Assembly: GCA_973895155.1 (NCBI GenBank)
Contig: OZ316896.1
Coordinates: forward strand, 14,129,542 to 14,193,541
DNA from: Marsupella aquatica
Lineage: Eukaryota; Plantae; Marchantiophyta
Reading direction: 5' to 3'
DNA: 64,000 bases
Each line of letters opens with the position of its first letter. Positions within the stretch are counted from its first letter, which is position 1. Positions 14,510 through 44,162 of this stretch are shown one piece after another. The position numbers and the translations under genes are program-made. The notes beneath the pieces are model-generated. The model saw only the letters and a program-made list of their open reading frames with translations, did no database searches and was not told the origin of the DNA.

Positions 14510-14629
14510 TCCTCTGTGATGCCTAGACAGGAATCACTCGGCCGGTTAAGTGGGTAAAGCAGGAAGGCACCCTAGGAACACCTTAGTATAGGGACAAAAC
14601 AAGGAAAATATAAACAATTAGGGGCAACC

Positions 14630-17600
14630 ATGGAACCCGGGCCGAGGCCGGAGGTAAGGCTGAGGGTGAAAACCCGATTAGGGTTAGGGCGCGTTAAGCG
14701 TCGGCGGCTAGGAAGGATCAACGGGAAGAAGGACCGGCAGAGGAGAGGGGTAAGGAGCGCTTGCAGGAGATGGTGGCTCATTTGCGAGCACGAACTAGGC
14801 AGACGACTACGGGAGGCCAACTACTGTCAGCTGCTTAGGCAAGCACTCGGGGAGAGAGTAGATACCGACGATCGACCTAAGGAGGGTATGAGCAACGTCA
14901 ATCAAGCGGCACATTTCTGGGGATGCCTGTTCGAACGGGCAACTGAGTACATCAAGACTTACGAGGACGAGGAGTCAGAAAGGGCAGCTCGAGAACGGCA
15001 GGAGCTCACTCGATTGTGGGAGCTGCAGAAGACGGCTTTCTTAGGAGGCGAACTCATCAAGGACGAGTTCCTGTGGACGCCTACTTCCAATCAACTCGAC
15101 GATCTTCTGTTCTGCAAAGACAGCGTCGTCGGCATCTGAGAGGCCATCAAGAACTGCAACGACATACACTGGGAATTAAAGGGTAGCACGGAAAGGTGGA
15201 CCCAGGCAACGGTGCTAGGAGAAACCTCCACGGCAGCAGAGATGAAGAGGAAGGGAGCCATCAACGATGAAGCCACCCCGGCAAAAAGAACGAGGTCGGC
15301 GGCACCAAAGAAGCCAGCCGAGCAACAGAGCAGGAGGCAGGGAGAAGCCGAAGAGGAGGAGGTCGATCCCATCAAGGCCATTCCAACCAGGGATGACACC
15401 TGGAAGGGCTGGGCGGCAACCCTACCGGTGGAGGTGCAACTACATTTTGCACGGGAGGAGGATGCATGCTTTACGGCCATGCAGACCAAGAAGTACCAAG
15501 GCTTCATGGCCGGATCCGGCTTGGAGGCCTTTGTAAGATTACCATGGCTGAAGCCGGAGGTACCGGAGTCAGACCTATTAGAATTCGTGGGGTCATGGTG
15601 TAGTTTGCTATGAAGAACCAAAAACACATTTAAAGGTCTTCAAACTCGGTATTCGTTCCCGTAAAGAACAAGATTGGGTTGGTTTGATAGTTTTAAACAA
15701 TAATAAAGAAATTAAGATGTTTTCCACATATAGTAATCAAATTTGATTACTTTACTAAGGTATTTTGAAGATCGCTCCACAGCGGTGAGCAGTTTTTGAT
15801 GATAACTCAACATCATATAACCATCAATTAAGCAAAAGGTTGCAATTAACGAAATACAAGGAAAAATCTCTTAGAGTATGCTAAGGGAGTCTGGAATAGA
15901 CCAAGGTTACTCCTTAGACATAAGTAATAATGGAATAACTTAAAGGGAATCCAAATCCACACGGCTTTTCAGATCTAAACTGCATACTAGAGTATCCTTT
16001 TAAAATGCCGGCAACATGTCTTGACCTTTCTTCCTAAGTGATACTTAGTCAAGATCTAAAAGGATAAATACTTCAGCATTTAGATGGTACTAAGCAACAT
16101 GAAGGTGAAAACATCATTTCCAATGCAACTTAAACTCAATGAGTTAACTCTAAGAACTTGTGAGATTACAATGTGTCACCAAAGCGGAATCTGACATTAT
16201 AATTCACGAGATTCATAACTGAGGTTTTACTTCAAGTATTTGGGTTCCAAAATACAAGAAGGAGGTAAGTCTCTCCAAATGTTAAACCTGATCTCGAACT
16301 CATAGATTCATGATCAACTAGTTTAACACAAGGGAGAGGCAAAACTGCAAAACTTAACCATCATCTACACTAGTGGTAGAGGGGTCTTATAGTAAAAATC
16401 TACTGAGTGAGAGGTCACAGGGTCGAAGAGACATGCCTCTTCATACCCCTCAAAATTTTAAAATGGCGATTCAGTAAGTGAAAAGCCGGAAAAATGGCTA
16501 AGTATGAACTCGTAACTAGTAACTATTAACTCGTAATCGGTTGTCTATCGGAACTCGTAATCGGAAACTAGTAACTCTTAAACTAGTAAAAGCTAAGTCG
16601 TAACTCGTAATCGCGGTAAAGTAAAGACTTGATGAATTCAACTATTTTTAACTTCCTAACTATAAGTCAGAAAACTCTGAGATTTTGCCAGGAGGTTTTC
16701 CTAGGTACAGACTATACACTAAAGAAGTATGACAGCTTCTAAAGCTCTAGAACACATTTCTAAAAATCAGATAAGATGCACTACTCTAAAAACTAACTAA
16801 GAACACTTAGAGACTTCTTCAAGCTTGCTGTCGGATGTCCTCTGGTTCTAGTAACTCCACAAGGGTAACAATTCGGTTCTGGGTAACCTCTATCAGCTCA
16901 GCTTGGCGTGGGGATCCTCTGGAGTAAGGTAGGCACCTCAGTTGTCTCTCAGGGTACATCAAAGGCATTCTCTTCATCAAATAACATGAATCTATACGAA
17001 GAGCTTCTCTGTACATCCCGATCACATCATAGTTGTTGCAGGTAGCAGCATACACTTGAGGATAATGAAACAGGAACTCATCACTACTCATCATCCTGGA
17101 ATAGAAGGGTCGAAGTCTCCATTTGACATCTCTGAAATACCGGTTGAAGCTGGGCAGAGTTTGAGAGGTAAGGTGGAAGAGAAGTCAGTAATGAGCGCCT
17201 ATGTCTTGCATTCCTTCCCTTTCAAGGTGAGCTCTTCATCCGTTGTGGAGTCCCGTTGAACTAGTTGTAAGATGTCACGATCACAGAGTCGCCAAATCTT
17301 AAGGTGTAACTCGTAAAGCAGTGAACTAGTAAACTCGTAAACTGAGTTTACTCGTAACTTAGGAACTTAGTAACTTTGAATGCTGTTTTAGTTACAGTTA
17401 GCAATAATTGCAGTCTAAACACCGTAAAAAATTTAAAAATTTTCAGTTTCTTCATGCTTTTGGAATTACCCACTACTTACACATGGGAACTCGAGACCAA
17501 TTGCACGAGGATATATGGGAAGGATTTCTATCTTACTCCCAAGGTAATTGCCGAAGTGTTTGGCCTGCCGATAGGCAATAAGACCAAAGTTGATACCAGG

Positions 17601-20150
17601 AAGACCTTGCCTGACAAGGAGTTCCGGTCGTTCCCCGGGCCATCAACGAAGAATGGCTTCTTCCGGAACACCTGCACCAACCCGCACATAGGAGAGATGA
17701 TTGACTTCTTGCGGGTGACCATGCATTGTAACTTGCCGAGGGCAGAGATCGGCAAGGCACAGGTCTATCTGGCAGAAAGGCCAGACCCAAGCCGGGACTA
17801 CAACGGGTACCTCCTCAACCAATTGAAGAAGATCTTAAAGGAGGAGCAGTAGGTAATCGGCATGGGGAGCGTGTCGCGGCTGGGCTATCACATGCCGCTG
17901 TTGTGCCGGTATGCCAGAGGTCAGACTTTTGCCCCGGTACTTCCCCTGCAGGTAAGGGCACCCGAGGAAGCTCCAACGCCGAGGCCGTTGGCTGAGAAGC
18001 CTCAACCACCTGTTAGTCCTACGATCGAGCAGGTGTTTAGGCCCAGGAAGGAAGACTTGCCGATGCAGCAACCAGGCATGCAGAGTCTGCTGAAACTACT
18101 GGAGAAAGAAAAGAAATCGGCATCGGCAACAACAACGGCAACGGCAACAATGCAGGACACTACTACAGAGGTAGGCCTACACCGGCTCACAAGAGAAAAC
18201 CCCTTTGCTGGAGACAAGGAGAGAATCAGGCCGGAATCCAAGCCAGGTGTTCGAATGTACGTGGGAACCTCAAGCTCCAAATCTGAGGCAGAATTGCCTG
18301 AAGCTCCTACCAACGAAGAGGAGAGGGAGAAGCCGGACGTCCAAGAGGTAGAGGAGGCAGTGGAGGACTGCAGCCATGATAATTCCGGCTATGGGTCGGA
18401 CCATCACGTTCCAGGAGTAAGGACCTGTGGCCGGTTTGTCCCCACACTTCCAAGGGTAGTGCGAGGGGACCCCAACCAGCAGAGTAGCCCTGAGTCTCCC
18501 CCACCAGATGTTGCTCCCCCGAGCTTCGACGACATAAAACAGACGGTGCAGGAATTTCAGGAGCGAATCAAGCAGGAGGAGGAGGCCGCCCTGGCTAAGG
18601 AAAAGGATTTACCAGGAGGAGATTGGCCGGAGGACATCAGGCGGCTATCCAAAAAAGGAAGCAAACCTCTAGCCACGATTGAAGAGATCCGCAGGACGGC
18701 TTGGGAGCAGAGGCCGCGATGGGCGATGCCGATCACTTCTACTTACTCCACCTACGCTAAGAATAGAGCCATGGAGTATGGTGAGATGTGTGGGGAACTT
18801 GCGCTCGGCATCTTTGGAGAGGAGTTGGAGGTAGGACCCTTTTTCCATAGGGAGCAGTTGGAGAAGCACCAATTAGAAGAAGCGGTGGCTTTAGAGAGAA
18901 GCAAGAAGGACGAGGTCATTCGGCGGCTTAGGAGGATGGAAGCCGAGATTGAAGATCTAAGGGCGGCCAAGAAAGCCCAAGATGAACTGCGGATTAAACG
19001 ACATGAGCTGAACATCATGCAGGGGCAGTTGGACACCGCGTAGGCTGATAATCAGAATATCAAGGATAAACTGACTCAGACGCAGGAAGAGTTGGCCGAC
19101 ACGATCAAAGAGAGGGAGAAGTGGAAGCAAGAGCTGAAGAATACAGAGGAGGCCCACATAACAGCCAACAGCCGGGCCATGGCGGAGACCCAAAGAAAGG
19201 AATGGGTGTTGAAAGGGGAGCTCGAGAAAATCCGCGGAGCCCTTGAGCAGAAGGAGGCCGAGTTAGGGAAATCCTATCAAGGGATTATGGCGCTGCAGCA
19301 GGAGCTTGCGTCCCTGACGGCCAGCTTCAAGGCCGACCTAAGGGAGAAGGACGAGATGCTCGAACAGACTTACGCCAAGATGAACCAGATGGAGTCTATC
19401 ATCATTGCAGAGCTCGACAAGGAGCTAAAAGCAACCCAGGAGGAGAGGACTACCTTGAAACAAGAACGGGAGGAAGCCCAGAAGGAACTAGAGGAGGCAT
19501 GCAAGGACCTGGATGAGACCCAGGAGGAGTTGGAGGAAATCACGAGGAAGATGGAGAACCTCCAGCGGCGGGCCGACAACCAAACGGAGCGGCTGAAGAA
19601 ACAAGCCGCAGTATTTAGGTGCTTGTCTTCATCAGGCCCAACTCCAATTGGGGCAACCAAGTTACCAGGAGTGGTACTGGCCGAAGAAAAAGCCGCGCCA
19701 ACTGCACCAGTGCCGGAGGTAAGTGGGAAGGGGAAGGGACCAGCTGCCGAACCAGAAAAGAAGAAAAAGCGGAAACCTTCAGGGTCAAGGAGTAATCCGA
19801 CTCCACAAGCCGTGGTGACCAAAGAGGTAGAACCAGCACCATCCTCCGACATGAATACGGCAATAGATCCCGCTATGATCACAGGTAGGGATGGTGCGGC
19901 CCAAGCCGAACTACTCAGTAAGGAGGCCAGTATTCCAGATCTGCCTCTTGAGCAGGCCGGGGAGACCGTAGCCGAGGCTGAGGCCGTAACTGATTCTCGA
20001 GCCGATGCCGACGCCGATGGTGGACCCAGTCAGGCCGATGGAGAGTTGACTCAGTCAAGGGCAGGTAATCTGTCAGGGAATGAGCCTACGGCAGTGGCTG
20101 AGGAGGAAGCGTTGGGGGCGTCCATTAAGGATCCACCACCGGTGTCGTGA
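14630..20150 (+). pseudogene. LTR-encoded accessory ORF, 5'-LTR copy (3 nonsense changes plus a solo-LTR insertion)
   Basis: ORF pieces 14630-15139, 15212-15598, 17487-17852, 17862-19043 and 19092-20150 join into the same protein as the 3'-LTR copy. Stops are CGA>TGA or CAG>TAG at codons that are sense in the other LTR. Confidence 0.85.
15599..17481 (-). mobile_element. 1883-bp solo LTR of a different family (family D) inserted in the family A 5' LTR
   Basis: TGTA...TACA termini and perfect TSD CATGG (15594-15598 and 17482-17486); AT-rich, with clustered AACT(C/A)GTAA repeats. Orientation is inferred from a minus-strand TATA-like site and is tentative. Confidence 0.85.
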
Positions 20151-21075
20151 TGGTGCAAGGGCGCCGTTCCTTTTAGGGAGGGCGGACGTGGAGGGAGGAG
20201 GCGTGAGTGGGCAGGGCGGGCGCGGATCTCCACGTTTAGGATTAGGATCAGAACCAGGAGCGGCCCTGACACTTAGCTTAGTGGGATTGCGGTCCCACTG
20301 GTAGGAGCAACACTTGTGCTCCTGCCTTGCTGTACATAGGTAGATTCGGGCAAGTAGATTACTGTTAAGTAGATTAGGCTTACGATGCAAAGAATGGCGG
20401 ATCCACTACCAAGATAAGTACCTGGGCAGCGGGGAGCTCAGGGCCTCTTCTTTAGCAAGTTTTTAGTTTGCACCAGCCGGGCTGGGATCAAGTAGTACGA
20501 GAAGCTCTCGGTTAGACATACAGTGACCCTTGTGTATATTCATGTTTCCTCATGCCTAAGAGCTGAATAGAGTTGGCCTCACGGCTTAGTTCGCAGAACT
20601 TGTGTATGAGATGTACTGTTTGTATGGCAAGTGCATGGTATGACTCAGTCAGAATGAGTCATTTTGCTATTTGTGTGTCGCATTAACTTGTGTGAAGAGT
20701 GCCCACATCAACAGAAGGAAGGAAAGTAAGCAGGGGAGTGAGAGTTGGATGTGTCGAGCTAAGAGAGGTCTTAGCGGCTTAACCAAGCCTATTGGGGATC
20801 ATTCCGGCGGCGGAATCCAAACATACCTAACAAGACGGAGGGGAAGACAGGGGAAGACAGGGGAAGGTCTATATTAGGCCGGCTACGTATCTCATGACCC
20901 GATGAAGGATCTGTCCAGTATATGTGTGTAAAATGTTAATAGTAGTAGTAGAAGGTTAGCAGCGTCCCATGCCGCTAAGCCGCGGAAACGGCCTCGCCAA
21001 GCACGAAACCTGCGGGAATCGGCTTGAGCTGGGGGGTTTCTTGGGTTTAGGGAGCCATGGGATGCACCACATTTT

Positions 21076-21092
21076 TGGTGCTAGATGGAGGG
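21076..21092 (+). promoter_or_regulatory. primer-binding site, tRNA-Asn-like
   Basis: TGGTGCTAGATGGAGGG 4 nt after the LTR; two mismatches to TGGCGCTAGAAGGAGGG, the complement of the plant tRNA-Asn(GUU) 3' end as recalled. Confidence 0.7.
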
Positions 21093-21140
21093 GGCATTTC
21101 TTAAGCCGTGAGATATGAAGTTAGAACGGAAGCGTAGGTA

Positions 21141-23228
21141 ATGACTGACCTTACGCCGAGGGAAGAAAGAGTGATTCAACGGGAGAGAGCTCGACTGCAG
21201 CAGCTCGCCGGGTGGCATGATACACAGCGACTGAGAGGGGCAGAAAGAGCTGGTAGCTCCAAAACTGGAAGTGGCGTCGAAGAAGACATACCAGAAGAAG
21301 AGTCGGTAAGGAGAAGTGAGTCTCCAACTGACATGGGGGAACCAGAGGCACGGCCAGACGAGAGGCCAGGGACCAGATTGAGCCAGCGGTCGCGCATACA
21401 TTACAAGGCATTTCATGGGAGAGGAGATGAGGATCCGGACGAATGGTTGGATGATTTCGAGGGAACCGCTGCAGCAAATGGAGAATCGGCCATCAAGATG
21501 CAGATTCTTCCCGGCCTATTCAAGGGTGAGGCTAGGCCTTGGTACAGAGCATTAGATGTGGAAGATCAAGCCATCTGGGATATCTTCAAAACACTCTTTG
21601 TTAAGGAGTTTCGACCCATTGGAACTTCAGAACTAGCAGTGCTGAAGTTGGGACAACTTCGGTTCAAGGAGAACAAATCCTTCAGGAAGTTCTTGCAACG
21701 CTTTCAGAAACTGGTAAGACGTACAAAGACCAATGCATCTGAAGGTATGCAACTTCAATGGTTGGTGAATGCTTTGCCACAGAAGATGAGTTTTGCAATT
21801 AGGAAGGAGAACCCGGAGACTTTAGCCGAAGCAATTAAGGATATTCAATTATACATTAATGCAGATATCACAAGCTGGAAGAAACAACTTAAGTCTGAGA
21901 GTTCCTCATCAGAGAAGGGATCACCCCATAAGAAAAAAGATAAGAAGAAGAAACATCCCAAGAAGTCTAGAAGTGATAAGTCAAGCTCGGATAGTGGGAG
22001 TAGCAAGAGTGAGTCATCTTCTAGTTCTGAAGAAGAAAAAACTAGGAAAAGGAAGGGTAGAAGGAGAGGGAAGACGAAAGTCAAGATGGAGGCTAAGCCA
22101 CCAGATAACATCGTAGCCCTTACCGAGCAACTTAAGGCTATCATTGCAGAGGTAAAACCAAAGAAGAAGGTAGTACAGGAGGATAGCTCTGTATGGTGTG
22201 CCTTATGTTATAAAACCGGACACCATAAAGATGCGTGTCCTAAGCTTAATACTAATCATGTTCGGCATGTGGCCGAGATCAGACCATGTCAGGGAGAAGT
22301 AGAGTACTTTTTAGGAGATGCCGCTGATAGTGTTTTCGGCATCAGTGAGACTGGAGCACGAGACCTATCCAACAGACCTGCATCTCTGTGGTCAGGGTTA
22401 AGGAACAATCCAGGAGAGATGTATCCTCGGATTATTCAGAACCCGTCAGTACCTCCTAGGCCAAATGTGCAAAGATTTGCGGCGTGCTATAATTGTGGTC
22501 AACCTGGCCATTTTGCTAGAGAATACCCGAATGCACGCAAACAGGGTGATGGACAACCAGCTCAGCTATGTATGGGATGCCGACAGGAAGGTCATATGCT
22601 AGGGCAATGTCCTACTTGGTTGGCAGGCCTGGCCGCAAATCATAAGCTTTTGCCGATCAAGATCTTACCGCCAGGTACTACCCCCGGAGGAGTTCAAATC
22701 AACCACATCGAACTAGGATGGCAAGAGGATGCCGAGGCAGAGTTCGTACCATCTGCTGATGAGGCCAAAGCCCTATCAACCTTCTCAGAGGAGGATTTAG
22801 ATCATGATTGCTACCGGGTCTCTACTCGATCTACCAGAAGGAAGGAAAGGTGGGATGGGCTGGCCAAAAATAAAGGGAAGGTTACGGAGGAAAGGATCGA
22901 CTCTTCGTCAACATCAACAGAAGGAGAAGGGAGGGCTCCGGCAATACAGGTAAGCCATGAGCCCACCAGTGAAACCAATCCTTCACAAGATAGCGACTTC
23001 AATCGAGATCATCCTAAGTTGTTCTACCCCTCTGTTACGGCTAGTGTTAAGGAACAACTAAGAGAATTAGAAACCCTGGAGAATACCGAAGCCATTGCCA
23101 AGGATGTAAAACGAGCAAAAGCATTGTTTGCTTCGGAAGACCCAACAGCTGTGGAGACTAGCGTGGCAAAACTGGCCGAATCCAAGACGGAAAACACCAC
23201 CAGAAGAGAAGCCGATTGTTCCCTATGA
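21141..23228 (+). CDS. gag: gypsy Gag (retrotransposon capsid domain, Ser/Lys-rich linker, three CCHC knuckles)
   Basis: FHGRGDEDPDEWL...GEARPWY capsid-like region; CALCYKTGHHKDAC, CYNCGQPGHFAREY (degenerate) and CMGCRQEGHMLGQC. Confidence 0.88.
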   Translation: MTDLTPREERVIQRERARLQQLAGWHDTQRLRGAERAGSSKTGSGVEEDIPEEESVRRSESPTDMGEPEARPDERPGTRLSQRSRIHYKAFHGRGDEDPDEWLDDFEGTAAANGESAIKMQILPGLFKGEARPWYRALDVEDQAIWDIFKTLFVKEFRPIGTSELAVLKLGQLRFKENKSFRKFLQRFQKLVRRTKTNASEGMQLQWLVNALPQKMSFAIRKENPETLAEAIKDIQLYINADITSWKKQLKSESSSSEKGSPHKKKDKKKKHPKKSRSDKSSSDSGSSKSESSSSSEEEKTRKRKGRRRGKTKVKMEAKPPDNIVALTEQLKAIIAEVKPKKKVVQEDSSVWCALCYKTGHHKDACPKLNTNHVRHVAEIRPCQGEVEYFLGDAADSVFGISETGARDLSNRPASLWSGLRNNPGEMYPRIIQNPSVPPRPNVQRFAACYNCGQPGHFAREYPNARKQGDGQPAQLCMGCRQEGHMLGQCPTWLAGLAANHKLLPIKILPPGTTPGGVQINHIELGWQEDAEAEFVPSADEAKALSTFSEEDLDHDCYRVSTRSTRRKERWDGLAKNKGKVTEERIDSSSTSTEGEGRAPAIQVSHEPTSETNPSQDSDFNRDHPKLFYPSVTASVKEQLRELETLENTEAIAKDVKRAKALFASEDPTAVETSVAKLAESKTENTTRREADCSL

Positions 23229-24135
23229 CCTGGCTAAAGATGTACTAGAATCTAGAGTCTCGGCAACAGTAGGTCAACTATTGAAAAATAGCCCGTACTT
23301 CCGGAAGCAATTAAGGAAGGCTATTCTCGGCAAGCCGAGATTACCCAAGGTAGCAACCAGATCCGACGTACTAATGATAGAAGAAGATCAAGGAGCCCCA
23401 GCATTACCATTAATGATTCAAGGAGAATTATTACTACGGGTACCCATCGATGGAGGATCAGGGGTATGTATTATGATTGATTCAACAGCAAAAGGGTGGG
23501 GTCTAACACCGGAGATGACTGGAAGAGTGTTGAACATGGCCAATGGATATCAGGTCATTCCTACGGGAGTGTTAACCGGCATCAAGACAGAGATAGGAGG
23601 TATCTTCTTTAGCATTAACTATGTAGTAATGAAGCCGGTAAATCCTACGTCATTCCGGCTATTGATTGGTAGGCCATGGTTGTACCTAGCCGAGGTAATA
23701 GAAGATTGGGGTAAAAAGCAGTTCACTTTCGGGACCCCCTCTATCACGGTATCCTGGGACACTAAGGATGACCGTAGGAAAAGCATAAGGGAAGTAGATG
23801 GGTACGACAGTGGACTGGAGTCAGCCGATGAAGTACGTTGGTTAGAATGCCTCACTAACCTAACCGAAGAAGGTGTCTTTGGACCAGAGGTAGCCCCCAG
23901 CGGATTATGGCAAGAACCAATGGAAGGTGACTTGGAAGAAGAAGACGAAGAGGTCGAGGACTGCTTTACAATAGAATCCACCTTTTTAGCTGCAATTCCG
24001 GAGGAAGTAAAGGATGTAGACCAATTGGATGAAACGGCTAAGTGGGGAGCAGTAGCAGGGACAGTGGATTTTCTGCAGGCGTTGTGGCAGAGCCAACGGG
24101 GTCCACAACGCCATCGATCATCGGCAAGGAATTAA
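23128..24135 (+). CDS. gypsy aspartic protease region (+1 frame relative to gag)
   Basis: Active-site motif PIDGGSGVCIM and LLIGRPWL. Probably continuous with gag before a 1-nt slip near 23190. Confidence 0.8.
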   Translation: MLRKTQQLWRLAWQNWPNPRRKTPPEEKPIVPYDLAKDVLESRVSATVGQLLKNSPYFRKQLRKAILGKPRLPKVATRSDVLMIEEDQGAPALPLMIQGELLLRVPIDGGSGVCIMIDSTAKGWGLTPEMTGRVLNMANGYQVIPTGVLTGIKTEIGGIFFSINYVVMKPVNPTSFRLLIGRPWLYLAEVIEDWGKKQFTFGTPSITVSWDTKDDRRKSIREVDGYDSGLESADEVRWLECLTNLTEEGVFGPEVAPSGLWQEPMEGDLEEEDEEVEDCFTIESTFLAAIPEEVKDVDQLDETAKWGAVAGTVDFLQALWQSQRGPQRHRSSARN

Positions 24136-27100
24136 ATACCAAGGGATCGGCATACAAGCCGATTACGAGGGCAGAACAAATTGAGGCCCTATTAGAAGCC
24201 GAGAGAGCACAGCGGCCTAACTCTCAGGAGCAAGAGGTGGATGAGATGGACAGACACGATCCAGAGCCAAGGCAGGAAGGGGAGCCGACCACTAATTCAA
24301 AACCGAATAGACCGGTAAGGGGACAATCTATGGACACCAAGGAAGGGACCGACTCGGCTAGTCCAGCCGAGATCCCAGTTTATGGAGGTATGAGATTAGA
24401 GAGACTGGAAGCCGAACTGGACCCGAATTTGAAGAAGCAGATTAATATGATCCAAGCACGGCAATATCGGAAGCTCGACTTAGGAGAGGGAAGTGAACTG
24501 AACTTAGGGAGAAACCTAGCACCTGAGCTCGAGAAAGAGATCAGTAACTTATTGATTGAATTTCAGGATGTGTTTGCATGGAGTCACCAAGATCTAAAGG
24601 GAGTAGATCCAACACTAGGGGAACATCGAATTGATCTCATGTTAGGAGCCAAATCATTTCGACAACCAATTCGAAGGATGAACCCGAAGTATTCCCTGCT
24701 GGTCAAAACAGAAATCGACAAACTAGTGGAAGCTGGATTCATCACTCCAGTCCTGCATTCAGACTGGGTGTCTCCAATTGTGATAGTTCCCAAGAAAGCT
24801 GGACCCGATGGTAAACCCAAGATCCGGGTTTGTCAGGATTACAGGAAGCTGAATGAAGCAACATTAAAAGACCATTTTCCTTTACCGTTTACTGATATGG
24901 TACTAGACATGGTAGCCAGTCATGAACTATATTCATTCATGGATGGATACTCTGGTTATAACCAAATCAGGATTCGGCAGGAAGACCAAATCAAGACGGC
25001 CTTCATCACGGAATGGGGGATCTATGTCTTCAATCGTATGCCGTTTGGACTCTGCAACGCACCAGCTATGTTCCAACGATTAATGGTGAACATTTTTCAT
25101 GATTACTTGAGAAAGTTCATGGAAATCTTCATTGACGACTTTGCAGTATTCGGGAAGGCATCGAAACATGCTAAATACCTCAGGAAAACCTTCATGAGAT
25201 GTAGAGAGGTGGGTCTCAAGTTACACCCAGATAAATGTTTTTTTGCAGTAACCGAGGGGGTGCTACTAGGTCACAAGGTATCAAGGAAGGGCATTGAGAT
25301 TGACAAAGGTAAGCTAGCAGTATGGCTAGATATCATGCAACCTAAGAACATAAAGGATGTAAGATCCTTCTTGGGATGCATTGGTTACTATCACCGGTTC
25401 ATCAAGGATTTTGCCAAGCTAGCTTTACCATTAACCAATATGCTCAAGGCAGGAGCAGACTTCGAACCCACACCCGAACGAGTCACAGCGGTGGTAGAAT
25501 TAAAGCAGATGTTAGTAGAGGCCCCAGTCATGATAGCACCGGACTGGAACAAAGATTTTCATGTTTTTGTAGATGTCTCGGGCTTCTGTATTGGCTCAGT
25601 ACTAAGTCAGTTGGATGAGAAAGGAAGGGACCATCCCATATACTTCGCAAGCCGTCAACTTGCCGATGCCGAACGGAACTACTCTACCACGGAAAGAGAA
25701 GCATTAGGAGTCATTTATTCTTGTAAAAAGTTTAGGCATTATTTACTAGGGTACAAGGTAATCTTTCATACTTATCACGAAAGTTTGAAGTACCTAGTCA
25801 ATAAGCCGGACCTTACAGGCAGAGTAGCAAGATGAATTTTGCTATTACAGGAGTTTGACTATGAGCTGAGGATCAAGCCGGGAAAGTTACATGCCAATGC
25901 CGACTTCTTTTCAAGGATCACAGGTAAACCTGCCACGGATTGCATCGATGATCAATTCCCCGACGAGGAGCTATTCATTGTGGAAATAGCTGGTACATGG
26001 TACCCTGAGATTTTACAATTTCTCAGCACTTCCAGATTACAGCCAGGATTAAGCCGAGAGCAAGCCGCAGTCTTTGTGCGGAAGGTCAGACAGTATCAGT
26101 GCATTAAGGGCATACTGCACAAGCATGGAATCAACGGCACGATTCAAAGATGTTTGGAAAAGAGAGAGGTAAAACGAGTCCTACGGGCCATGCATGGAGA
26201 GGAGGCCGGAGGACATTTTGCCCCAGTAACCACGTCTAAAAAGATATTAAATGCCGGTTACTGGTGGCCCACCTTGCACAAAGATGTCTATCAGTTTATC
26301 AAACAATGCGATCCTTGTCAACGAGCGGGAGGACCAAGGGCGTCCACCAGGCATCCACTGCACCCTATTCTACCTCTGGCACCATTCGAGAAGTGGGGTA
26401 TTGATTACATTGGACCTCTGAAACCACTGACCCACCCTCGACGGAACAAGTACATAATCCTGGCTACGGATTATGCAACTAAATGGGTAGAGGCCAGACC
26501 AACAACGAAGGATGATGCAATTACTACGGCTAGATTCATGTATGAGCAGATCTTCACCAGGTATGGAGCACCCCTAGAATTAGTTAGTGATAGAGGAACC
26601 CATTTTTTGAATGATATAATTAGTCGTTTAAATGAGCAGTATTTAGTTAAACATAGGCCTACTACTCCCTACCATCCAAAGGCAAACGGGTTGACAGAAC
26701 GAGCAAACGGAATTATAGGAAAGATATTGAACAAGACAGTAGCTCAGAACAAACTCGATTGGGATGATAAATTGTTTGCTGCTGTTTTTGCTTACAATCT
26801 TGCCTATAAATCCACTACCGGTCATACACCCTTCTTCTTAACCTTTGGACAAGAAGCCCTGGTACCCATGCAACTTGAGATACCGACATTTCAAGTTACA
26901 ATTGAGGAAAGAGCCTCAGCAGAGGAGAGCCTAAAGGAGCGAGAATATAGGTTAGAAGCTTTAGAGGAAGCGAGAATGATTTCACTTGAGAGAGTAGAAT
27001 ATAGACAGAATATCATGAAGCAGCAGTATGATAAAAGGTTAAAAGTAGTTAGTATTCATACCGGTGATCTTGTGCTACTTTATGACAGTAGGTATAGTAG

Positions 27101-27308
27101 GTTTCCAGGAAAGCTTTACACTCGCTGGTTAGGACCCTTTAGAGTAACCATGATGTTCCCCAATGGCTCCGTACAATTGGCCAACATTACGGGAGAGGTA
27201 TATCCAGTTCGCATCCATTATGACCGCCTCAAGAAATACTATATGGACGAAGATGAAGTTGTTCGCGAGGATGCTTCACAATTAAGTGGGGAGCTATGTG
27301 ATGCCTAG
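24042..27308 (+). CDS. pol: gypsy Pol: RT, RNase H and integrase; one in-frame stop (TGG>TGA at 25833-25835)
   Basis: RT RVCQDYRKLN, MDGYSGYNQI, MPFGLCNAP, IFIDDF; RH VDVSG..EREAL; INT HHCC (GGHF..CDPCQ), WGIDY, SDRGTHF, NGLTER. The ORF ends 12 nt inside the 3' LTR. Confidence 0.93.
24066..24112 (+). promoter_or_regulatory. putative programmed -1 ribosomal frameshift signal
   Basis: Slippery G-GAT-TTT (24066-24072) in the protease frame, a 5-nt spacer, then a perfect 10-bp stem GGCGTTGTGG (24078-24087)/CCACAACGCC (24103-24112). It lies in the overlap of the PR ORF and the -1 pol ORF. Confidence 0.7.
27284..27293 (+). promoter_or_regulatory. polypurine tract, within the integrase coding end
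   Basis: AAGTGGGGAG, 3 nt before the TG of the 3' LTR. Confidence 0.75.
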
Positions 27309-30300
27309 ACAGGAATCACTCGGCCGGTTAAGTGGGTAAAGCAGGAAGGCACCCTAGGAACACCTTAGTATAGGGACAAAACAAGGAAAATATAAACAAT
27401 TAGGGGCAACCATGGAACCCGGGCCGAGGCCGGAGGTAAGGCTGAGGGTGAAAACCCGATTAGGGTTAGGGCGCGTTAAGCGTCGGCGGCTAGGAAGGAT
27501 CAACGGGAAGAAGGACCGGCAGAGGAGAGGGGTAAGGAGCGCTTGCAGGAGATGGTGGCTCATTTGCGAGCACGAACTAGGCAGACGACTACGGGAGGTC
27601 AACTACTGTCAGTTGCTTAGGCAAGCACTTGGGGAGAGAGTAGATACCGACGATCGACCTAAGGAGGGTATGAGCAACGTCAATCAAGCGGCACATTTCT
27701 GGGGATGCCTGTTCGAACGGGCAACTGAGTACATCAAGACTTACGAGGACGAGGAGTCAGAAAGGGCAGCTTGAGAACGGCAGGAGCTCGCTTGATTGTG
27801 GGAGCTGCAAAAGACGGCTTTCTTAGGAGGCGAACTCATCAAGGACGAGTTCCTGTGGACGCCTACTTCCAATCAACTCGACGATCTTCTGTTTTGCAAA
27901 GACAGCGTCGTCGGCATCCGAGAGGCCATGAAGAACTGCAACGACATACACTGGGAATTAAAGGGTAGCACGGAAAGGTGGACCCAGGCAACAGTGCTAG
28001 GAGAAACCTCCACGGCAGCAGAGATGAAGAGGAAGGGAGCCGTCAACGATGAAGCCACCCCGGCAAAAAGAACGAGGTCGGCGGCACCAAAGAAGCCAGC
28101 CGAGCAGCAGAGCAGGAGGCAGGGAGAAGCCGAAGAGGAGGAGGTCGATCCCATCAAGGCCATTCCAACCAGGGATGACACCTGGAAGGGCTGGGCGGCA
28201 ACCCTACCGGTGGAGGTGCAACTACATTTTGCACGGGAGGAGGATGCATGCTTTACGGCCATGCAGACCAAGAAGTACCAAGGCTTCATGGCCGGATCCG
28301 GCTTGGAGGCCTTTGTAAGATTACCATGGCTGAAGCCGGAGGTACCGGAGTCAGACCTATTAGAATTCGTGGGGTCATGGGAACCCGAGACCAATTGCAC
28401 GAGGATATATGGGAAGGATTTCTATCTTACTCCCAAGGTAATTGCCGAAGTGTTTGGCCTGCCGATAGGCAATAAGACCAAAGTTGATACCAGGAAGACC
28501 TTGCCTGACAAGGAGTTCCGGTTGTTCCCCGGGCCATCAACGAAGAATGGCTTCTTCCGGAACACCTGCACCAACCCGCACATAGGAGAGATGATTGACT
28601 TCTTGCGGGTGACCATGCATTGTAACTTGCCGAGGGCAGAGATCGGCAAGGCACAGGTCTATCTGGCAGAAAGGCCAGACCCAAGCCGGGACTACAACGG
28701 GTACCTCCTCAACCAATTGAAGAAGATCTTAAAGGAGGAGCAGCAGGTAATCGGCATGGGGAGCGTGTCGCGGCTGGGCTATCACATGCCGCTGTTGTGC
28801 CGGTATGCCAGAGGTCAGACTTTTGCCCCGGTACTTCCCCTGCAGGTAAGGGCACCCGAGGAAGCTCCAACGCCGAGGCCGTTGGCTGAGAAGCCTCAAC
28901 CACCTGTTAGTCCTACGATCGAGCAGGTGTTTAGGCCCAGGAAGGAAGACTTGCCGATGCAGCAACCAGGCATGCAGAGTCTGCTGAAACTACTGGAGAA
29001 AGAAAAGAAATCGGCATCGGCAACAACAACGGCAACGGCAACAATGCAGGACACTACTACAGAGGTAGGCCTACACCGGCTCACAAGAGAAAACCCCTTT
29101 GCTGGAGACAAGGAGAGAATCAGGCCGGAATCCAAGCCAGGTGTTCGAATGTACATGGGAACCTCAAGCTCCGAATCTGAGGCAGAATTGCCTGAAGCTC
29201 CTACCGACGAAGAGGAGAGGGAGAAGCCGGACGTCCAAGAGGTAGAGGAGGCAGTGGAGGACTGCAGCCATGATAATTCCGGCTATGGGTCGGACCATCA
29301 CGTTCCAGGAGTAAGGACCTGTGGCCGGTTTGTCCCCACACTTCCAAGGGTAGTGCGAGGGGACCCCAACCAGCAGAGTAGCCCTGAGTCTCCCCCACCA
29401 GATGTTGCTCCCCCGAGCTTCGACGACATAAAATAGACGGTGCAGGAATTTCAGGAGCGAATCAAGCAGGAGGAGGAGGCCGCCCTGGCTAAGGAAAAGG
29501 ATTTACCAGGAGGAGATTGGCCGGAGGACATCAGGCGGCTATCCAAAAAAGGAAGCAAACCTCTAGCCACGATTGAAGAGATCCGCAGGACGGCTTGGGA
29601 GCAGAGGCCGCGATGGGCGATGCCGATCACTTCTACTTACTCCACCTACGCTAAGAATAGAGCCATGGAGTATGGTGAGATGTGTGGGGAACTTGCGCTC
29701 GGCATCTTTGGAGAGGAGTTGGAGGTAGGACCCTTTTTCCATAGGGAGCAGTTGGAGAAGCACCAATTAGAAGAAGCGGTGGCTTTAGAGAGAAGCAAGA
29801 AGGACGAGGTCATTCGGCGGCTTAGGAGGATGGAAGCCGAGATTGAAGATCTAAGGGCGGCCAAGAAAGCCCAAGATGAACTGCGGATTAAACGACATGA
29901 GCTGAACATCATGCAGGGGCAGTTGGACACCGCGCAGGCTGATAATCAGAATATCAAGGATAAACTGACTCAGACGCAGGAAGAGTTGGCCGACACGATC
30001 AAAGAGAGGGAGAAGTGGAAGCAAGAGCTGAAGAATACAGAGGAGGCCCACATAACAGCCAACAGCCGGGCCATGGCGGAGACCCAAAGAAAGGAATGGG
30101 CGTTGAAAGGGGAGCTTGAGAAAATCCGCGGAGCCCTTGAGCAGAAGGAGGCCGAGTTAGGGAAATCCTATCAAGGGATTATGGCGCTGCAGCAGGAGCT
30201 TGCGTCCCTGACGGCCAGCTTCAAGGCCGACCTAAGGGAGAAGGACGAGATGCTCGAACAGACTTACGCCAAGATGAACCAGATGGAGTCTATCATCATT

Positions 30301-31965
30301 GCAGAGCTCGACAAGGAGCTAAAAGCAACCCAGGAGGAGAGGACTACCTTGAAACAAGAACGGGAGGAAGCCCAGAAGGAACTAGAGGAGGCATGCAAGG
30401 ACCTGGATGAGACCCAGGAGGAGTTGGAGGAAATCACGAGGAAGATGGAGAACCTCCAGCGGCGGGCCGACAACCAAACGGAGCGGCTGAAGAAACAAGC
30501 CGCAGTATTTAGGTGCTTGTCTTCATCAGGCCCAACTCCAATTGGGGCAACCAAGTTACCAGGAGTGGTACTGGCCGAAGAAAAAGCCGCGCCAAGTGCA
30601 CCAGTGCCGGAGGTAAGTGGGAAGGGGAAGGGACCAGCTGCCGAACCAGAAAAGAAGAAAAAGCGGAAACCTTCAGGGTCAAGGAGTAATCCGACTCCAC
30701 AAGCCGTGGTGACCAAAGAGGTAGAACCAGCACCATCCTCCGACATGAATACGGCAATAGATCCCGCTATGATCACAGGTAGGGATGGTGCGGCCCAAGC
30801 CGAACTACTCAGTAAGGAGGCCAGTATTCCAGATCCGCCTCTTGAGCAGGCCGGGGAAACCGTAGCCAAGGCTGAGGCCGTAACTGATTCTCGAGCCGAT
30901 GCCGACGCCGATGGTGGACCCAGTCAGGCCGATGGAGAGTTGACTCAGTCAAGGGCAGGTAATCTGTCAGGGAATGAGCCTACGGCAGTGGCTGAGGAGG
31001 AAGCGTTGGGGGCGTCCATTAAGGATCCACCACCGGTGTCGTGACGGTGCAAGGGCGCCGTTCCTTTTAGGGAGGGCGGACGTGGAGGGAGGAGGCGTGA
31101 GTGGGCAGGGCGGGCGCGGATCTCCACGTTTAGGATTAGGATCAGAACCAGGAGCGGCCCTGACACTTAGCTTAGTGGGATTGCGGTCCCACTGGTAGGA
31201 GCAACACTTGTGCTCCTGCCTTGCTGTACATAGGTAGATTCGGGCAAGTAGATTACTGTTAAGTAGATTAGGCTTACGATGCAAAGAATGGCGGATCCAC
31301 TACCAGGATAAGTACCTGGGCAGCGGGGAGCTCAGGGCCTCTTCTTTAGCAAGTTTTTAGTTTGCACCAGCCGGGCTGGGATCAAGTAGTACGAGAAGCT
31401 CTCGGTTAGTCATACAGTGACCCTTGTGTATATTCATGTTTCCTCATGCCTAAGAGCTGAATAGAGTTGGCCTCACGGCTTAGTTCGCAGAACTTGTGTA
31501 TGAGATGTACTGTTTGTATGGCAAGTGCATGGTATGACTCAGTCAGAATGAGTCATTTTGCTATTTGTGTGTCGCATTAACTTGTGTGAAGAGTGCCCAC
31601 ATCAACAGAAGGAAGGAAAGTAAGCAGGGGAGTGAGAGTTGGATGTGTCGAGCTAAGAGAGGTCTTAGCGGCTTAACCAAGCCTATTGGGGATCATTCCG
31701 GCGGCGGAATCCAAACATACCTAACAAGACGGAGGGGAAGACAGGGGAAGACAGGGGAAGGTCTATATTAGGCCGGCTACGTATCTCATGACCCGATGAA
31801 GGATCTGTCCAGTATATGTGTGTAAAATGTTAATAGTAGTAGTAGAAGGTTAGCAGCGTCCCATGCCGCTAAGCCGCGGAAACGGCCTCGCCAAGCACGA
31901 AACCTGCGGGAATCGGCTTGAGCTGGGGGGTTTCTTGGGTTTAGGGAGCCATGGGACGCACCACA
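27297..31965 (+). repeat. family A 3' LTR (4669 bp)
   Basis: TGTGATGCC...GCACCACA, followed by TSD TCCTC. Confidence 0.95.
27412..31044 (+). pseudogene. LTR-encoded accessory ORF, 3'-LTR copy: 1210 codons from ATG 27412, or 1124 aa from ATG 27670; two nonsense changes
   Basis: ORFs 27412-27774, 27796-29436 and 29440-31044 share one frame. Stops at 27772 (CGA>TGA) and 29434 (CAG>TAG) are sense in the 5' LTR. Contains a globular domain LPW..LLEFVGSW..TRIYGKDFYLTPKVIAEVFGLP, a long heptad coiled coil and KKKKRK. Confidence 0.88.
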
Positions 31966-39289: not shown

Positions 39290-39634
39290 TGTTGAGCATA
39301 GACGACAATTGTAACGGCAAGCCCATGAACCATCCAACGCACAAGAGTCAACACAAAGAGATATGTGGTTCACCTCCACATGAGGCTACGTCGACGGGAA
39401 CACACAAGAGCTTTACTGCAATCTAGGCCGACCGGCCATACCAAGCATCCACAACGCAAGCTCTCTCTATCTCTCAACTAGCTCTGTAACAATGAACCTG
39501 AGTTCCCACTCTCCAAGCAAACACCGCTTGGTTATAGAGTGTGCGCAACATGACTAACTTGACCAAGTCTACGACTAAGGTTAACCTTAACTACGGTACA
39601 GTCGTAACTCTAGACCTAAGAGTAAATCCTAACA
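39290..39634 (-). repeat. copia 5' LTR (345 bp)
   Basis: Matches 10495-10839; flanked by TSD CTTAG. Confidence 0.95.
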
Positions 39635-39796
39635 CTTAGGGCATGTCCCTCTTTGTCGTTTTCAGTTATTCTTGAATTGCTATTGAGACAGAGCTTTTCA
39701 GACAATGCTCATCAGTTTAGTACATAGGATTCAGATAGTGATTCATTAGGTGCTCCCAGCATATCTTGGCATCCCGCTGGTTTTCAGTTTGATTTT

Positions 39797-42700
39797 TGTC
39801 ATGTCGTAGGCTTCGGCCTTAACTCAGACTTCAGTTGAGACGGGCACATCCCTCGTAAATCTGAGGGTTCGGGCAGGAAGGGAAGCACGTAATGCACCTT
39901 ATTCTCGTAAACTAGCGCTAAGTGCGCATACTGCTAAATACGGACACCTCCTAGGTATGGTTTGTGTTCCGCCACCGGAACGTACCTTAGTCGATAGCAG
40001 GATCGACCCCGGCTTAAGGGCTTCTAAGCCTTTGTGCTGTCCGCCTTCGATCCGGATTTGATGATACAGGTCCTCAACCCGTGCTCGCAACCACTTACCC
40101 ACAGGCTGCACCCTGTGCACGTCTCGGGTAGTGCGTTCGGCCTGGCGCTGCCACCCATATACAAGAAACCCACACACATATGCGCACACATGCATACAAT
40201 CTCGATTTACACGAAGGAAAATGATGGGAAAGGATTTTACTACAAAGGGAACATATGCGTACACTTAGTTGACCCGACAGCCCTGGAATGAATAGGTTCA
40301 AGGCCGAGGGTGCACACTACAACGGAGCCCGGCTCCGCACTCGCCCGACGAGCTTAGTCCTACCCCCTCCCCTTGGTACTCTGTCATTCCCAGAGGTCGG
40401 GACTCCCCGCATATCCCGCGGATGTCCGACTCTGAAACTAAAAACCCCCCTGCCTCTACCGAGGGGTGCACTAAATACTAAGAGCCGAGGGACGGGGTGT
40501 CCTCTCGCCGAAGATTCGCTGACTAAGGTCCTAACTAAGCTGACAGTCAGGCCGGAAAACGGCTGTGTCTTATTAGAAGATCCTAATCTATGCAGGCTGG
40601 ACAGCAAGGCAGCGCTGCTGTACCTAAGGCAGGTGCCTGTCCCAAGAGCCTGACTAAGCCAATCCTAATCCTAATCTATTCCTACTCCGCCGCTAATGCC
40701 TGGCACGCTTGCCAGAGCCGCCCGAATGGGAACGGCCATCCCGCTGCCTTCGAAGCCTGTCATTGTCCGCTTTGAGGAGCTGGACCTGGTCCAACAGAGA
40801 TTCGTTCTCTCGCCTTGCCGCGTTCGTCTCCTCAGCTGCCTCCTGACATGCCTCCTCTAGCTGCTGGGCGTCGCTCGTCAGTTTACCCGCCAGCTGGTCC
40901 TGCTTCTCGGCCTTGGTTTGGAGCCGCGCCATCTCAGCCTGCAGCGTGGCTATCTCCGCCGTGTCCCGTTGGGCTCGCTCCTCGGCCTCCTCCAGGTCTT
41001 TCTACCAGGTGATAGCTTGTTTCTTCAAACTGTCAATCTGGTTCCGGAGTCGTGTAATCTTGGCCTCGTTCCCAGCTTTGGCCTATTCGGCTAGGGCGGT
41101 AAGAGCGTGCGCCTTTGCTAACAACTCATCGGTGGCTGCAACCTTGGGTCGTAGTTGCAGAAGCTCAGCCTCTTGCGCCGCCACTTCGTTCTTTAGGTAC
41201 ACGGACTCCACCCGGTACCGCTCTATCCTCTGAAGGGCCTCCGACTGGGCCCGACCTGCCTTTACGGCGGCAACCAACTCCTGATTGAAGAAACAGGCTA
41301 CCTTCCGGGCCATGAACTCCCCGGTATCCCGGGAAATTTGATGAGAGAAATCTCCCAGAAGCCCGTTCAGAAACGTACCCTGTACGAAGAGTTCCGGGTG
41401 GTCCAAGTTGTGCCTGTCCGGATTTGGGCACGGGCAGACGTCAACACGCGCGGGGGCCGGGGCAGTGACGTCCAGCCCTGGGGACATAAGGTTGGAAGGG
41501 GCTGGAGTGTCCTCCTGCAGCAATGTCCGGTTCTCCGGAATTGCCACCGGTGGGTCATTGGGAGACCCGGGTTTGGGTAAGACCTGTGCCGTACCAACTT
41601 CTGTACTTAGCCCGACTAGTTGGGTCGCATCAACGGTTGCGACAACCGACCCCTCCGGCGCCTCCTCGGTTACGATTACAGCTATTTGTGGAGGTGGGGT
41701 GGGTGAAGCTGGCGTGTCCGCTGGACTTCGGGCCTCGGGTTGGGGCCGTCTCTCCAATGCCGGAAAAACCCACCTAGCTGGGACCAGCTTTGTAACGTTG
41801 ATGCGGGGAAGGGTTCGTCGATCAAATCGGGCGTACCACTCAAGAATGATTTCGATGTGGCTAGCGAAATACGCCTTCCCGCCAATGTACAGCATCTTCC
41901 TTCGCTGCTCCATCTCTTCATGGAATTTCTTAGTGAAGTACAACGCCCATTTCCTAGGTCGATAGTTCTCGACCTGGATAACCTGGGCGGCGGAGATCTC
42001 CCCCCGGGGTTCCATCATGTGGAGAGCGTACCTTTGGAACTCCAGCCGCTCAGCTATCTCGGGCATGAGGCAGGTCCTCATCACGAACCCGTTGTCTACT
42101 GCTCCCTCTGAGGGAAAACTTGAAGATTGGTACTTGGCCCCCTTGCCCCGGGAGCCCGTGATTCGACTCGATGATCACCTTCAGATAACCCGAAGATCAT
42201 CTTGAGCCGTTCTTCTATGAGGGACATATTCCTTCCCCGCAGCCAAGTCTGTTGACGTACGTCGTCATAATTCTTGACGAATTCTGTCATGTCCTCCCCG
42301 TAGTACCTACAAGTGTTCCAGGGGAGAGAGGTGAGGTGCTCAAATCCCTGAGTCTTCAGGTACACCGCATGCTTGGGTTGGAGGATGTTGCTGTGAACGT
42401 TTTCCCCCATGCGGTGCATCGTCACCTTGGCTACGGCTACCGTGGCCAACGGTAACCCGGATGTAGTGGCGGATTCCTTCCTCTTCTTTCCCCGTGACTG
42501 ACTCGGGGAAGGTGATACTTCCCCATCCTCCCGATCGGGCCTGGGGAGTGCCACTGCCATTGGTAACGGGCCCGGGGCGGCCACGGTCACCATGTTGTCT
42601 GCTGGGGCCGCTCCTCGGGTCAGAGCAGGGGGTGGGGACGATATAGTGTCGGCCCCCCGAGCGCTTGTTCCTCTGGGCCGCCTGGTCAAGGGTGGGGTAG

Positions 42701-43812
42701 CCTCGTCGTCATCGCTAAGATCCACAGCATTGATGACGGAGCGTACCTGTGCTGGCTGGGTGATAGGTGGTGGGGTTTGGCTAGGCTGCGGCTGAGGCTG
42801 AAGCTGAAGCTGAGCCTGAGGTTGAGGCTGGGGTTGCATGGGCACGGGTACGGGTACGGGCATGGCTGAGTTGGTCATGTTGGTTGATGGCCGAGTTCCC
42901 ATGAAGCTCTGCAGGTGCTGGTAGAAGTTCTCCGAAGCGAGTGGGGACGCCCTTGTCGAACGGTTGGTACTGGACTCGCCGTTAATGACAGCCCAAACCC
43001 GGGCAGGGATGTGGTCGAAGTGATGTCGCTGCAGGTCGATTGTACTCGGGATATTGAAGACCTCGTCCGGAAGCCGAAGCAATGCTTCCCAGAACCCGAT
43101 ATATTTGTCTCCGTTGAAGAAGTACCCAGATACCTCTGCTGGTCGGTAAAGCTCGCTCTGAGACGGGTAGTCAAAGTTAAGGACGTAGTGGTGTCGTCCT
43201 GCTAGGCGGATGGCTCTCTCGTATTCGCGTTCGATTTCGTATCGGTGCGGGTTGGCGTGTTTCAATGAATCGGCCAAGTGCCTTCCGGTAGATAGGAACT
43301 GCGTCCAGAATCGAATGGCTGAGCTAGAGAGGATCGTGTGCGACATTCAGAGGAGATAGTAGTGGCGACCTAGAGAGAACGAGAGAGTTGGGGTCAAAGC
43401 TGGCGCGCGGACTGATGGACTGGTGCACTACAAAGGGTTGGCTCCCCTTTTATACTTTGAGGGCTTGCCGATCCCCGACATCTCCTCGACGCCCATAGGC
43501 TGAACCGCTCACGCTTGTGGTGTACCGGCCACTCCGCCGGTCTGAGTCAGCGTGCGTCAGTGGCCGCTTCCTTAAGTTTGTTATACGGACCCGAGGGAGG
43601 GGCCCTTCCACGCTCGTAACCCGGGTGTGCGAATAGCGACCCGCCGCCAGCCCGAACCTGAAGTCCCCCTTATTGCCTAATGATGTCCTACCCCTAATGA
43701 TTACCTAAATACTATCGTTATGCTAATAATAGCGGCCTAAGACCCACCTAACGCGCGTGCCAAGCGCAGTTAGACTGAATTACTCATTAACCGCCGTACC
43801 GGCGGCGTCACA
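39797..43812 (-). mobile_element. 4016-bp solo LTR of family B carrying an LTR-encoded ORF
   Basis: Minus-strand TGTGACG...CATGACA termini, TSD ATTTT (39792-39796 and 43813-43817), TATA-like TATAAAAGGG near 43446-43454 (minus), no gag/pol inside. Confidence 0.85.
40693..43346 (-). pseudogene. family B LTR ORF (~880 codons; one frameshift near 42150, two stops), homolog of the family A LTR protein
   Basis: LPW...MTEFVKNY...WLRGRNMSL...IFGL / SFPSEGAVDNGFVMRTCLMPEIAERLEFQR...PRGEISAAQV aligns with family A LPW...LLEFVGSW...IYGKDFYL...VFGL / SFPGPSTKNGFFRNTCTNPHIGEMIDFLR...PRAEIGKAQV; C-terminal coiled coil. Confidence 0.8.
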
Positions 43813-44162
43813 ATTTTGATACTTTGTTTCTATTACGCCTTTATTCAAGAAGAAATGTCAAGTTAATGGTGAGGAGAAGAAGATCGGAGACATTTTGCTT
43901 CTCAATTGCTCATGGCAATTTTGATCATTTTTGTCCAGGTCATTGCAATTTCTTCGACGAACATTGGAGCGACGGGTTGAAAGTTATGAGGTTTATGTTA
44001 TGTGTATACATATTAATGTGTTCCCGTGGGACCCATATTTTTTGTTTGGCCGTAGCGCGACCTCCTTTTGACCACATTATTAACAACCCTTCGCGACCAT
44101 TTTTTGCCATTTCCCGACCATGGTTGCCGATGAGCCTACCCTGGCCGCAGCGCAATCATCTG

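Follow-up and report, generated by a model that had tools for sequence, protein, structure and literature searches.

Extra open reading frames (ORFs) are known from several plant Ty3/gypsy retrotransposons, and those of the OTA elements include PMD-A in Ogre, ORF-1 in Athila, and Transposase_32 (PMC6317226, PMC7264820, PMC5418596). A review of such ORFs puts them in the internal region (PMC7264820), and non-chromoviruses are described with PMD or Athila ORF-1 extra ORFs and long terminal repeats (LTRs) of up to ~5 kb, in a text whose accessible part does not mention Marchantia (PMC6317226). PMD-A is Gypsy-encoded in angiosperms, and the ancestry of the PMD gene is called fully open (PMC5418596). 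VANC21 and VANC6 are DUF1985 proteins of the Arabidopsis VANDAL (Mutator-like) transposons, VANC being described as dicot-specific (PMC5735166; PDB 9lnj, 9lnk), and VANC has been derived from host MAIN-like proteins (PMC13547354). The host PMD-C proteins MAIN, MAIL1 and MAIL2 reportedly have the VANC fold and act at DNA motifs against Polycomb silencing (PMC5418596; bioRxiv 10.1101/2024.09.27.615353). An ORF within an LTR is described for mouse mammary tumour virus (MMTV), whose sag/naf ORF lies in U3 (PMC9412291). Here we report on a 64,000-nucleotide stretch of the liverwort Marsupella aquatica (GenBank assembly GCA_973895155.1, contig OZ316896.1, positions 14,129,542 to 14,193,541; hereafter the window), which contains a full-length element, family A, and a 4016-bp unit, family B. 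Our reading, to which we assign a probability of roughly 0.6, is that the B unit is the solo LTR left by another non-chromovirus family of Ty3/gypsy elements, distinct from A, and that its ~4-kb LTR holds a gene homologous to that of family A, with a predicted VANC-fold core and a possible anti-silencing role, placed there by a switch of polypurine tract (PPT).

The B unit and its target site duplication (TSD) are located as follows.

39797..43812, minus strand: 4016-bp unit of family B, probably a solo LTR; TGTGACG...CATGACA as read on the minus strand; depth drops at both ends, and empty sites occur in related sequencing runs
39792..39796: left TSD ATTTT, from the sequence; the 5-mer is present once at paralogous empty sites
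43813..43817: right TSD ATTTT, from the sequence

These coordinates, the TG..CA ends and the ATTTT duplication are exactly those given by an earlier sequence-only reading of the window, and TG..CA ends with a TSD of 4–6 bp are among the features by which a solo LTR is recognised. Parts of the unit are present in seven of the eight sequencing runs examined, whose contigs are 50–900 bp long. In runs X1 to X3 the summed contig depth, which is no measure of copy number, is ~1e4–6e5 over the unit versus ~3e2–3e3 in the adjoining bins, and the limits of the repeat match the ends first proposed. Contigs from empty sites (four in X2, five in X3 and one joint in X5) join the left flank to right-flank-like sequence and carry the 5-mer once, so the duplication is real. 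At other copies, the sequence beyond the B 5' end is a purine tract whose last eight bases equal those of the family A PPT (six contigs in X5, agreement 0.54), and beyond the 3' end stands a 13-nt T-rich spacer with TAG at its start and TG after it (three contigs in X2), TGG occupying the same offset in two contigs of X3; a similar spacer of 11 nt precedes the primer-binding site (PBS) of L004, a related metagenome locus discussed below. T>C and A>G make up most of the differences between this copy and the others, a pattern that decay of this copy by cytosine deamination would produce. The sequence-only reading also saw no gag or pol in the unit, and a Pfam scan of three B ORF pieces, with the short ORFs of the unit outside its scope, returned neither, coiled-coil noise being its sole output. 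No second copy of the unit was found within the window. Taken on its anatomy, the B unit is very probably a solo LTR of a family known here from single units, its PBS, gag and pol lying outside the sequence seen.

That B might be no LTR, but a self-standing non-autonomous unit or a DNA transposon carrying the gene, is very improbable. Single B units alone were seen, which counts against a solo LTR, as do two Riccia sorocarpa gene models (P0048, P0050) in which the core domain is joined to a DDE_Tnp_4 (Harbinger-type) fragment; given these models, which reflect either a modelling fusion or carriage of the domain by a DNA transposon, the domain could travel with such transposons. Against this origin stand the 5-bp TSD, the TG..CA ends with terminal inverted repeats no longer than a few bases, the near identity of the B start to the family A LTR start, and the PPT-like and spacer-like junctions at other B copies.

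The accessory gene of the B unit and two associated motifs, all on the minus strand, are listed here.

43445..43454, minus strand: TATAAAAGGG TATA box, candidate promoter of the B gene, from the sequence
40693..43346, minus strand: accessory gene of B, disrupted here; colinear with P0064, an intact homolog of 906 aa (E 4e-69)
42987..43346, minus strand: N-terminal helical domain (FW motif), from a profile; no clear fold match
41770..42416, minus strand: core domain, PMD/DUF1985(VANC)/Transposase_32-like, split by a frameshift; from alignment and profile, the fold being taken from the A homolog
40783..41349, minus strand: coiled-coil region, followed by a basic C-terminal GKRARH
39952..39980, minus strand: 29-nt motif common with the family A tails, a TTCCG-N4-CGGAA hairpin plus CATACCTA

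TATAAAAGGG had been placed ~100 nt upstream of the B ATG, and it indeed occupies 43454–43445 of the minus strand, 108 nt from the ATG at 43346. The gene had been taken for a single ORF, which this copy contradicts: it contains a frameshift between 42156 and 42132 and two stops, at 41085–41083 and 41004–41002.

The homology of the A and B genes is supported by several comparisons. Two core blocks align with local scores of 74 and 114, against maxima of 44–53 in 500 plain and 500 block shuffles, and tblastn matches the proteins with a sum E of 4e-14. The block-by-block alignment proposed from the sequence thus stands for these two core blocks and fails pairwise for the MS..FW block (30 versus 25 ± 4; 63 of 500 shuffles reach 30). 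That block is nevertheless supported by a profile built from four outside N-termini, picked by eye for the FW motif. Its match to B has an E of 4e-11, and the N-termini of all six A copies match it in the same register with E between 7e-4 and 0.03; among 858 tiles searched with it, nothing besides A and B fell below E 2.7. By eye the two families had shown no nucleotide similarity; there is a little, in the LTR starts, TGTGACGCC and TGTGATGCC with eight of the first nine bases identical, and in the 29-nt motif of the 3' tail (score 34; shuffle maximum 28, n=300). A core profile from three A cores and two B pieces retrieves 62 proteins at E <= 0.001 among 1.84 billion, of which 15 are significant with A alone, 28 with B alone and 5 with both, and the family is accordingly old and wide, as had been suggested. 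Species names were found on seven of the 20 relatives looked up (five Calypogeia fissa, two Riccia sorocarpa). P0064 (906 aa) and P0071 (787 aa) have the same plan as A and B, namely N-domain, linker, core, linker and coiled coil.

Family A provides the full-length reference; its features are on the plus strand.

14515..31965, plus strand: full-length Ty3/gypsy element, TSD TCCTC; gag, protease (PR), reverse transcriptase (RT), RNase H (RH) plus integrase (INT) between two 4669-bp LTRs
21076..21093, plus strand: PBS-like sequence with TGG at its start, 4 nt beyond the 5' LTR; we take it to be tRNA-Asn-like
27280..27296, plus strand: PPT1, the polypurine tract in use, at the end of pol and directly before the 3' LTR
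27297..31965, plus strand: 3' LTR, from repeat comparison
27670..31044, plus strand: accessory gene of 1124 codons lying wholly within the LTR; this copy has three stops
31048..31085, plus strand: decayed PPT-like relic just past the A stop codon, likely PPT2

The A gene was maintained by selection while located in the LTR: the ratio of nonsynonymous to synonymous substitution (dN/dS) between A subfamilies (dS 0.39–0.54) is 0.08–0.11 in the core, 0.12–0.33 in the N-terminus and 0.24–0.28 over the whole gene, and the stops sit at different codons in each of five copies. Because the N-terminal profile is in register with B, aligning from the fourth position of MSNVNQ (27670), and the codons concerned are under selection (dN/dS 0.11–0.33), this methionine is likely the A start, as the sequence-only reading had held. 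The two LTRs flank gag-pol as direct repeats, and 28 of the 31 differences between them are transitions. The gag-PR-RT-RH-INT order, the lack of a listed chromodomain family for INT and a non-Met PBS mark A as a non-chromovirus Ty3/gypsy element, and in this respect it serves as a proxy for B. The additional RNase H that characterises Tat was found neither between RH and INT nor after INT. The closest named RT relatives are from Calypogeia fissa (65–71% identity), and the A RT groups with Calypogeia RTs (support 100), apart from seed-plant matches, in a quick, midpoint-rooted tree of 78 of 121 rows without labelled Athila references. These relatives would by themselves make a liverwort host likely. 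Phygy/Selgy elements are defined as short and without extra ORFs (PMC6317226, section 9), whereas A, which does have an extra ORF, spans ~15.6 kb once its nested insert is subtracted. A liverwort genome paper gives Athila, Phygy and Tat lineages, its accessible part leaving solo LTRs unmentioned (PMC12885004).

To place the gene within related elements, metagenomes were scanned for integrases and 80 of 376 confirmed loci were kept. At least 1.3 kb lies beyond the integrase in 39 of the 80, and the core profile matches six of the 80 (E < 0.05), all in sense and downstream of pol, five being among the seven closest such loci. L004 is circular and a whole element: it runs from pol to PPT1 without a TG after it, 452 nt, a 743-aa ORF, PPT2, TGTGATG, ~990 nt, a spacer, the PBS and gag. 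In L008 and L031 a PPT and TGT stand downstream of the ORF; L006 has a similar layout with an ORF that the core profile missed. As read from these layouts, the gene lies outside the LTR, between pol and the 3' LTR, in L004, L008 and L031. In L002 the nine bases after PPT1 are an inverted repeat of those preceding the PBS spacer, and in its sister L005 no second PPT was found within 215 nt past the stop; both contigs end early, and both are likely to carry the gene in the LTR. L001, L003 and L007 were assigned to neither layout. Family A alone shows the in-LTR placement directly; it is deduced for B, and likely in another clade, that of L002 and L005. The sequence-only reading had taken the gene-in-LTR architecture to be lineage-wide and proposed asking whether domain matches always fall within LTR pairs; because L004, L008 and L031 keep the gene outside, the protein is lineage-wide and its position is not. 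Two loci show further arrangements: in L031 (70–4713) pol continues in frame at its end into the core domain and a coiled coil, ahead of the PPT, and L057 (11108–12996) has, by eye, an RNase H-like ORF past the integrase, and also an antisense ORF that matches PMD weakly.

In the standard model of reverse transcription, the PPT that primes the plus strand fixes the 5' end of the LTR. Upstream PPTs occur in Athila4, Calypso and Sireviruses, where they are thought to fail through kinetic competition and a missing integrase site, and the extra PPT in the linker of Athila4 and Calypso is a likeness to the elements described here (PMC2829016, section 17). We propose that the ancestors of A and B had the gene between pol and a ~1-kb 3' LTR, with PPT1 after pol and PPT2 before the LTR. 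PPT2 and its integrase site would have decayed and a TG come to follow PPT1; with PPT2 lost and a TG after PPT1, both obstacles to the use of an upstream PPT would be gone. Plus-strand priming would then shift to PPT1, and reverse transcription would copy spacer and gene into the U3 of both LTRs. The resulting LTR would consist of a head (370–470 nt, with its own TATA box), the gene and the old LTR (~900 nt). The genomic RNA, with its start in the tail, would contain a single copy of the gene and need not be longer, each integrated element having two gene copies, and LTR–LTR recombination would delete gag-pol and leave a whole gene with its promoter. In B the two flanking segments would be these.

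43347..43812, minus strand: B head of 466 nt, probably what used to be the spacer from PPT1 to the ATG and is now U3; TTAG-rich cluster and TATA box; its role is read from L004
39797..40692, minus strand: B tail of 896 nt, probably the short LTR of the ancestor with its U3-R-U5; TTAG-rich cluster at its start; size close to that of the L004 LTR (~990 nt)

The head measures 373 nt in A and 466 nt in B, against the 452-nt spacer of L004, and the tail 921 nt in A and 896 nt in B. A PPT weight matrix built from 12 contexts in metagenome loci, anchored by eye and without sequence from the window, finds its best site in the A LTR 4 nt past the stop codon (16.6 bits; next 9.1; the true PPT1 19.7). 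This score is reached by none of 100 shuffles, and by 2 of 100 and 1 of 100 in two other A subfamilies; the relic has lost the AGCTA-TGT end. No relic was detected in B by the matrix (82 of 100 shuffles reach the best B site). The mechanism is one we infer from anatomy; a PPT switch is a good bet for family A, and we incline, less firmly, towards one for family B.

It is improbable that the gene instead lies in R/U5, with genomic RNA starting from the TATA box of the head, which would make it a 5' leader gene comparable to Ogre ORF1, though one within the repeat. The clearest TATA box of both LTRs is indeed in the head (position 94 in A, 359 in B) and no canonical poly(A) signal was found in the A and B LTRs, both of which tell against the switch as we draw it; such a layout, however, requires a minus-strand strong stop longer than 3.5 kb, and explains neither the PPT relic nor the match in size between tail and L004 LTR. 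A further history, which we consider unlikely, makes the in-LTR layout ancestral for the clade of A, B, L001, L002, L004, L005 and L007, with L004 having shortened its LTR via a new PPT after the gene. This challenges our reading in that A, L002 and L005 (in-LTR) and L004 (outside) form one clade (support 99) with A branching first, that on the integrase tree either ancestral state takes two changes, and that termini, PPT end and tail motif are common to A and B. On the other side, the domain lies outside the LTR in both outgroups, L008 and L031, the A branch is long, and the decayed PPT that A retains past its stop codon is expected if PPT2 came first. Because two changes are needed either way and the A and B domains are not sisters (FastTree, 41 rows, weak backbone), one or several moves into the LTR are possible, as is one common capture or two for A and B; a single early switch is compatible with both an ancestral in-LTR layout and the PPT switch.

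The core of the A homolog, as predicted, matches the PMD/DUF1985 (VANC) fold across the whole domain, and its sole structural match is a DNA-bound anti-silencing protein; a PMD/VANC fold is therefore predicted for the accessory-gene core with considerable confidence. Structure comparison gave no clear fold match for the N-terminal domain. The Pfam families PMD (PF10536), DUF1985 (PF09331) and Transposase_32 (PF20167) do not match A or B at curated cut-offs; below them, Transposase_32 scores 17 bits (cut-off 45) in 2 of 62 relatives, L008 scores 21 versus 45, and L057 24 versus 35 for PMD. TTAG(G) clusters occur in the non-coding DNA of the elements, at the start of both head and tail in A and B and at the LTR start in L004 and L008; these are motif counts, not significant as the global top k-mer. 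We tentatively suggest that the protein may be a DNA-binding anti-silencing factor for the element. A possible but somewhat doubtful alternative keeps the same solo LTR and gene and makes the protein a nuclear or particle-associated helper, acting in heterochromatin integration targeting, in RNA export or as a coiled-coil scaffold. Several points weigh in its favour and against an anti-silencing role: the function of retrotransposon PMD and Athila ORFs, and likewise of the Retand extra ORFs, is unexplained (PMC7264820, PMC5418596); the protein has an extra N-terminal domain without a fold match and a long coiled coil; and motif counts revealed no significant tandem target motif. Conversely, the one structural match is to an anti-silencing protein bound to DNA, and MAIN/MAIL proteins, which share this fold, counteract Polycomb silencing at DNA motifs (bioRxiv 10.1101/2024.09.27.615353).

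The domain superfamily and the element class are thus known, and what appears new for plants, as far as found, is the in-LTR layout and the PPT-switch route; literature searches, mainly of open texts and excluding supplements, returned neither a plant element with a whole gene in its LTR nor a PPT-switch origin of giant LTRs. VANC21 and VANC6 reside in a DNA transposon, whereas the A/B gene belongs to a liverwort retrotransposon, is 11–13% identical and has an extra N-terminal domain, its DNA binding and demethylation being putative. A sense extra ORF past pol with a PMD-superfamily domain is common to the OTA Ty3/gypsy elements and those described here, and the pol seen in A likewise has no extra RNase H separating RH from INT; the OTA ORFs, however, are placed in the internal region, and here the gene sits wholly within the LTR, each element has it twice, and solo LTRs retain it. 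MAIN, MAIL1 and MAIL2 are angiosperm host genes, likened to the A/B protein by their reported fold, via VANC. As with MMTV sag/naf, a whole ORF with its own promoter, here a candidate one, lies in the LTR, but MMTV is a vertebrate retrovirus with an unrelated protein. The MMTV LTR is also much smaller than the LTRs here.

Our reading would place a PMD/VANC-fold domain on non-seed-plant retrotransposons, and a bryophyte retrotransposon source bears on the questions of origin raised in PMC5418596 and PMC13547354. It offers a concrete and checkable route to giant LTRs, in which the LTR start is shifted to a PPT lying upstream and for which a relic and the states before and after the shift are at hand. 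The layout it describes is one where deletion of the element spares the accessory gene; the idea of retrotransposon extra ORFs as anti-silencing factors becomes testable in a liverwort model. A bolder and rather speculative proposition, on balance unlikely, is that the VANC-like gene of liverwort retrotransposons is an anti-silencing gene that predates VANC and MAIN and was repeatedly moved into the LTR by a one-step PPT switch, and that solo-LTR formation scatters trans-acting genes. If true, the host's main way of deleting elements would spread self-contained anti-silencing genes working in trans for the surviving full-length copies.

Against one full family A element, the 64-kb window contains three A solo LTRs whose TSDs match, together with a further copy that is interrupted; the ranges concerned are 32752–37559, 48800–53524, 58770–63352 and 57802–63735. 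Nested insertions at 15598, 33732 and 58769, in three different A LTR copies, correspond to 28380, 28271 and 28259 in the coordinates of the A 3' LTR, clustering within ~120 bp of 4.7 kb at the start of the core domain, which reflects either a hotspot or selection for copies with a knocked-out gene. The insertion inside the A 5' LTR (15599–17481) is a 1883-bp TG..CA unit with TSD CATGG, likely a solo LTR of a third family. The ~122-bp insert at 33733–33854 lies in an A solo LTR, one ORF reading across it; it presumably resembles a large-subunit rRNA fragment, and Rfam gave no match at gathering scores.

Elsewhere in the window, a 350-bp repeat has five copies (10493–10842, 39290–39640, 48193–48536, 54751–55094 and 56349–56698), which are likely LTRs of a copia-type element with pol at 11032–13581 on the minus strand, and a 63-bp tandem repeat of about three copies occupies 41–228.
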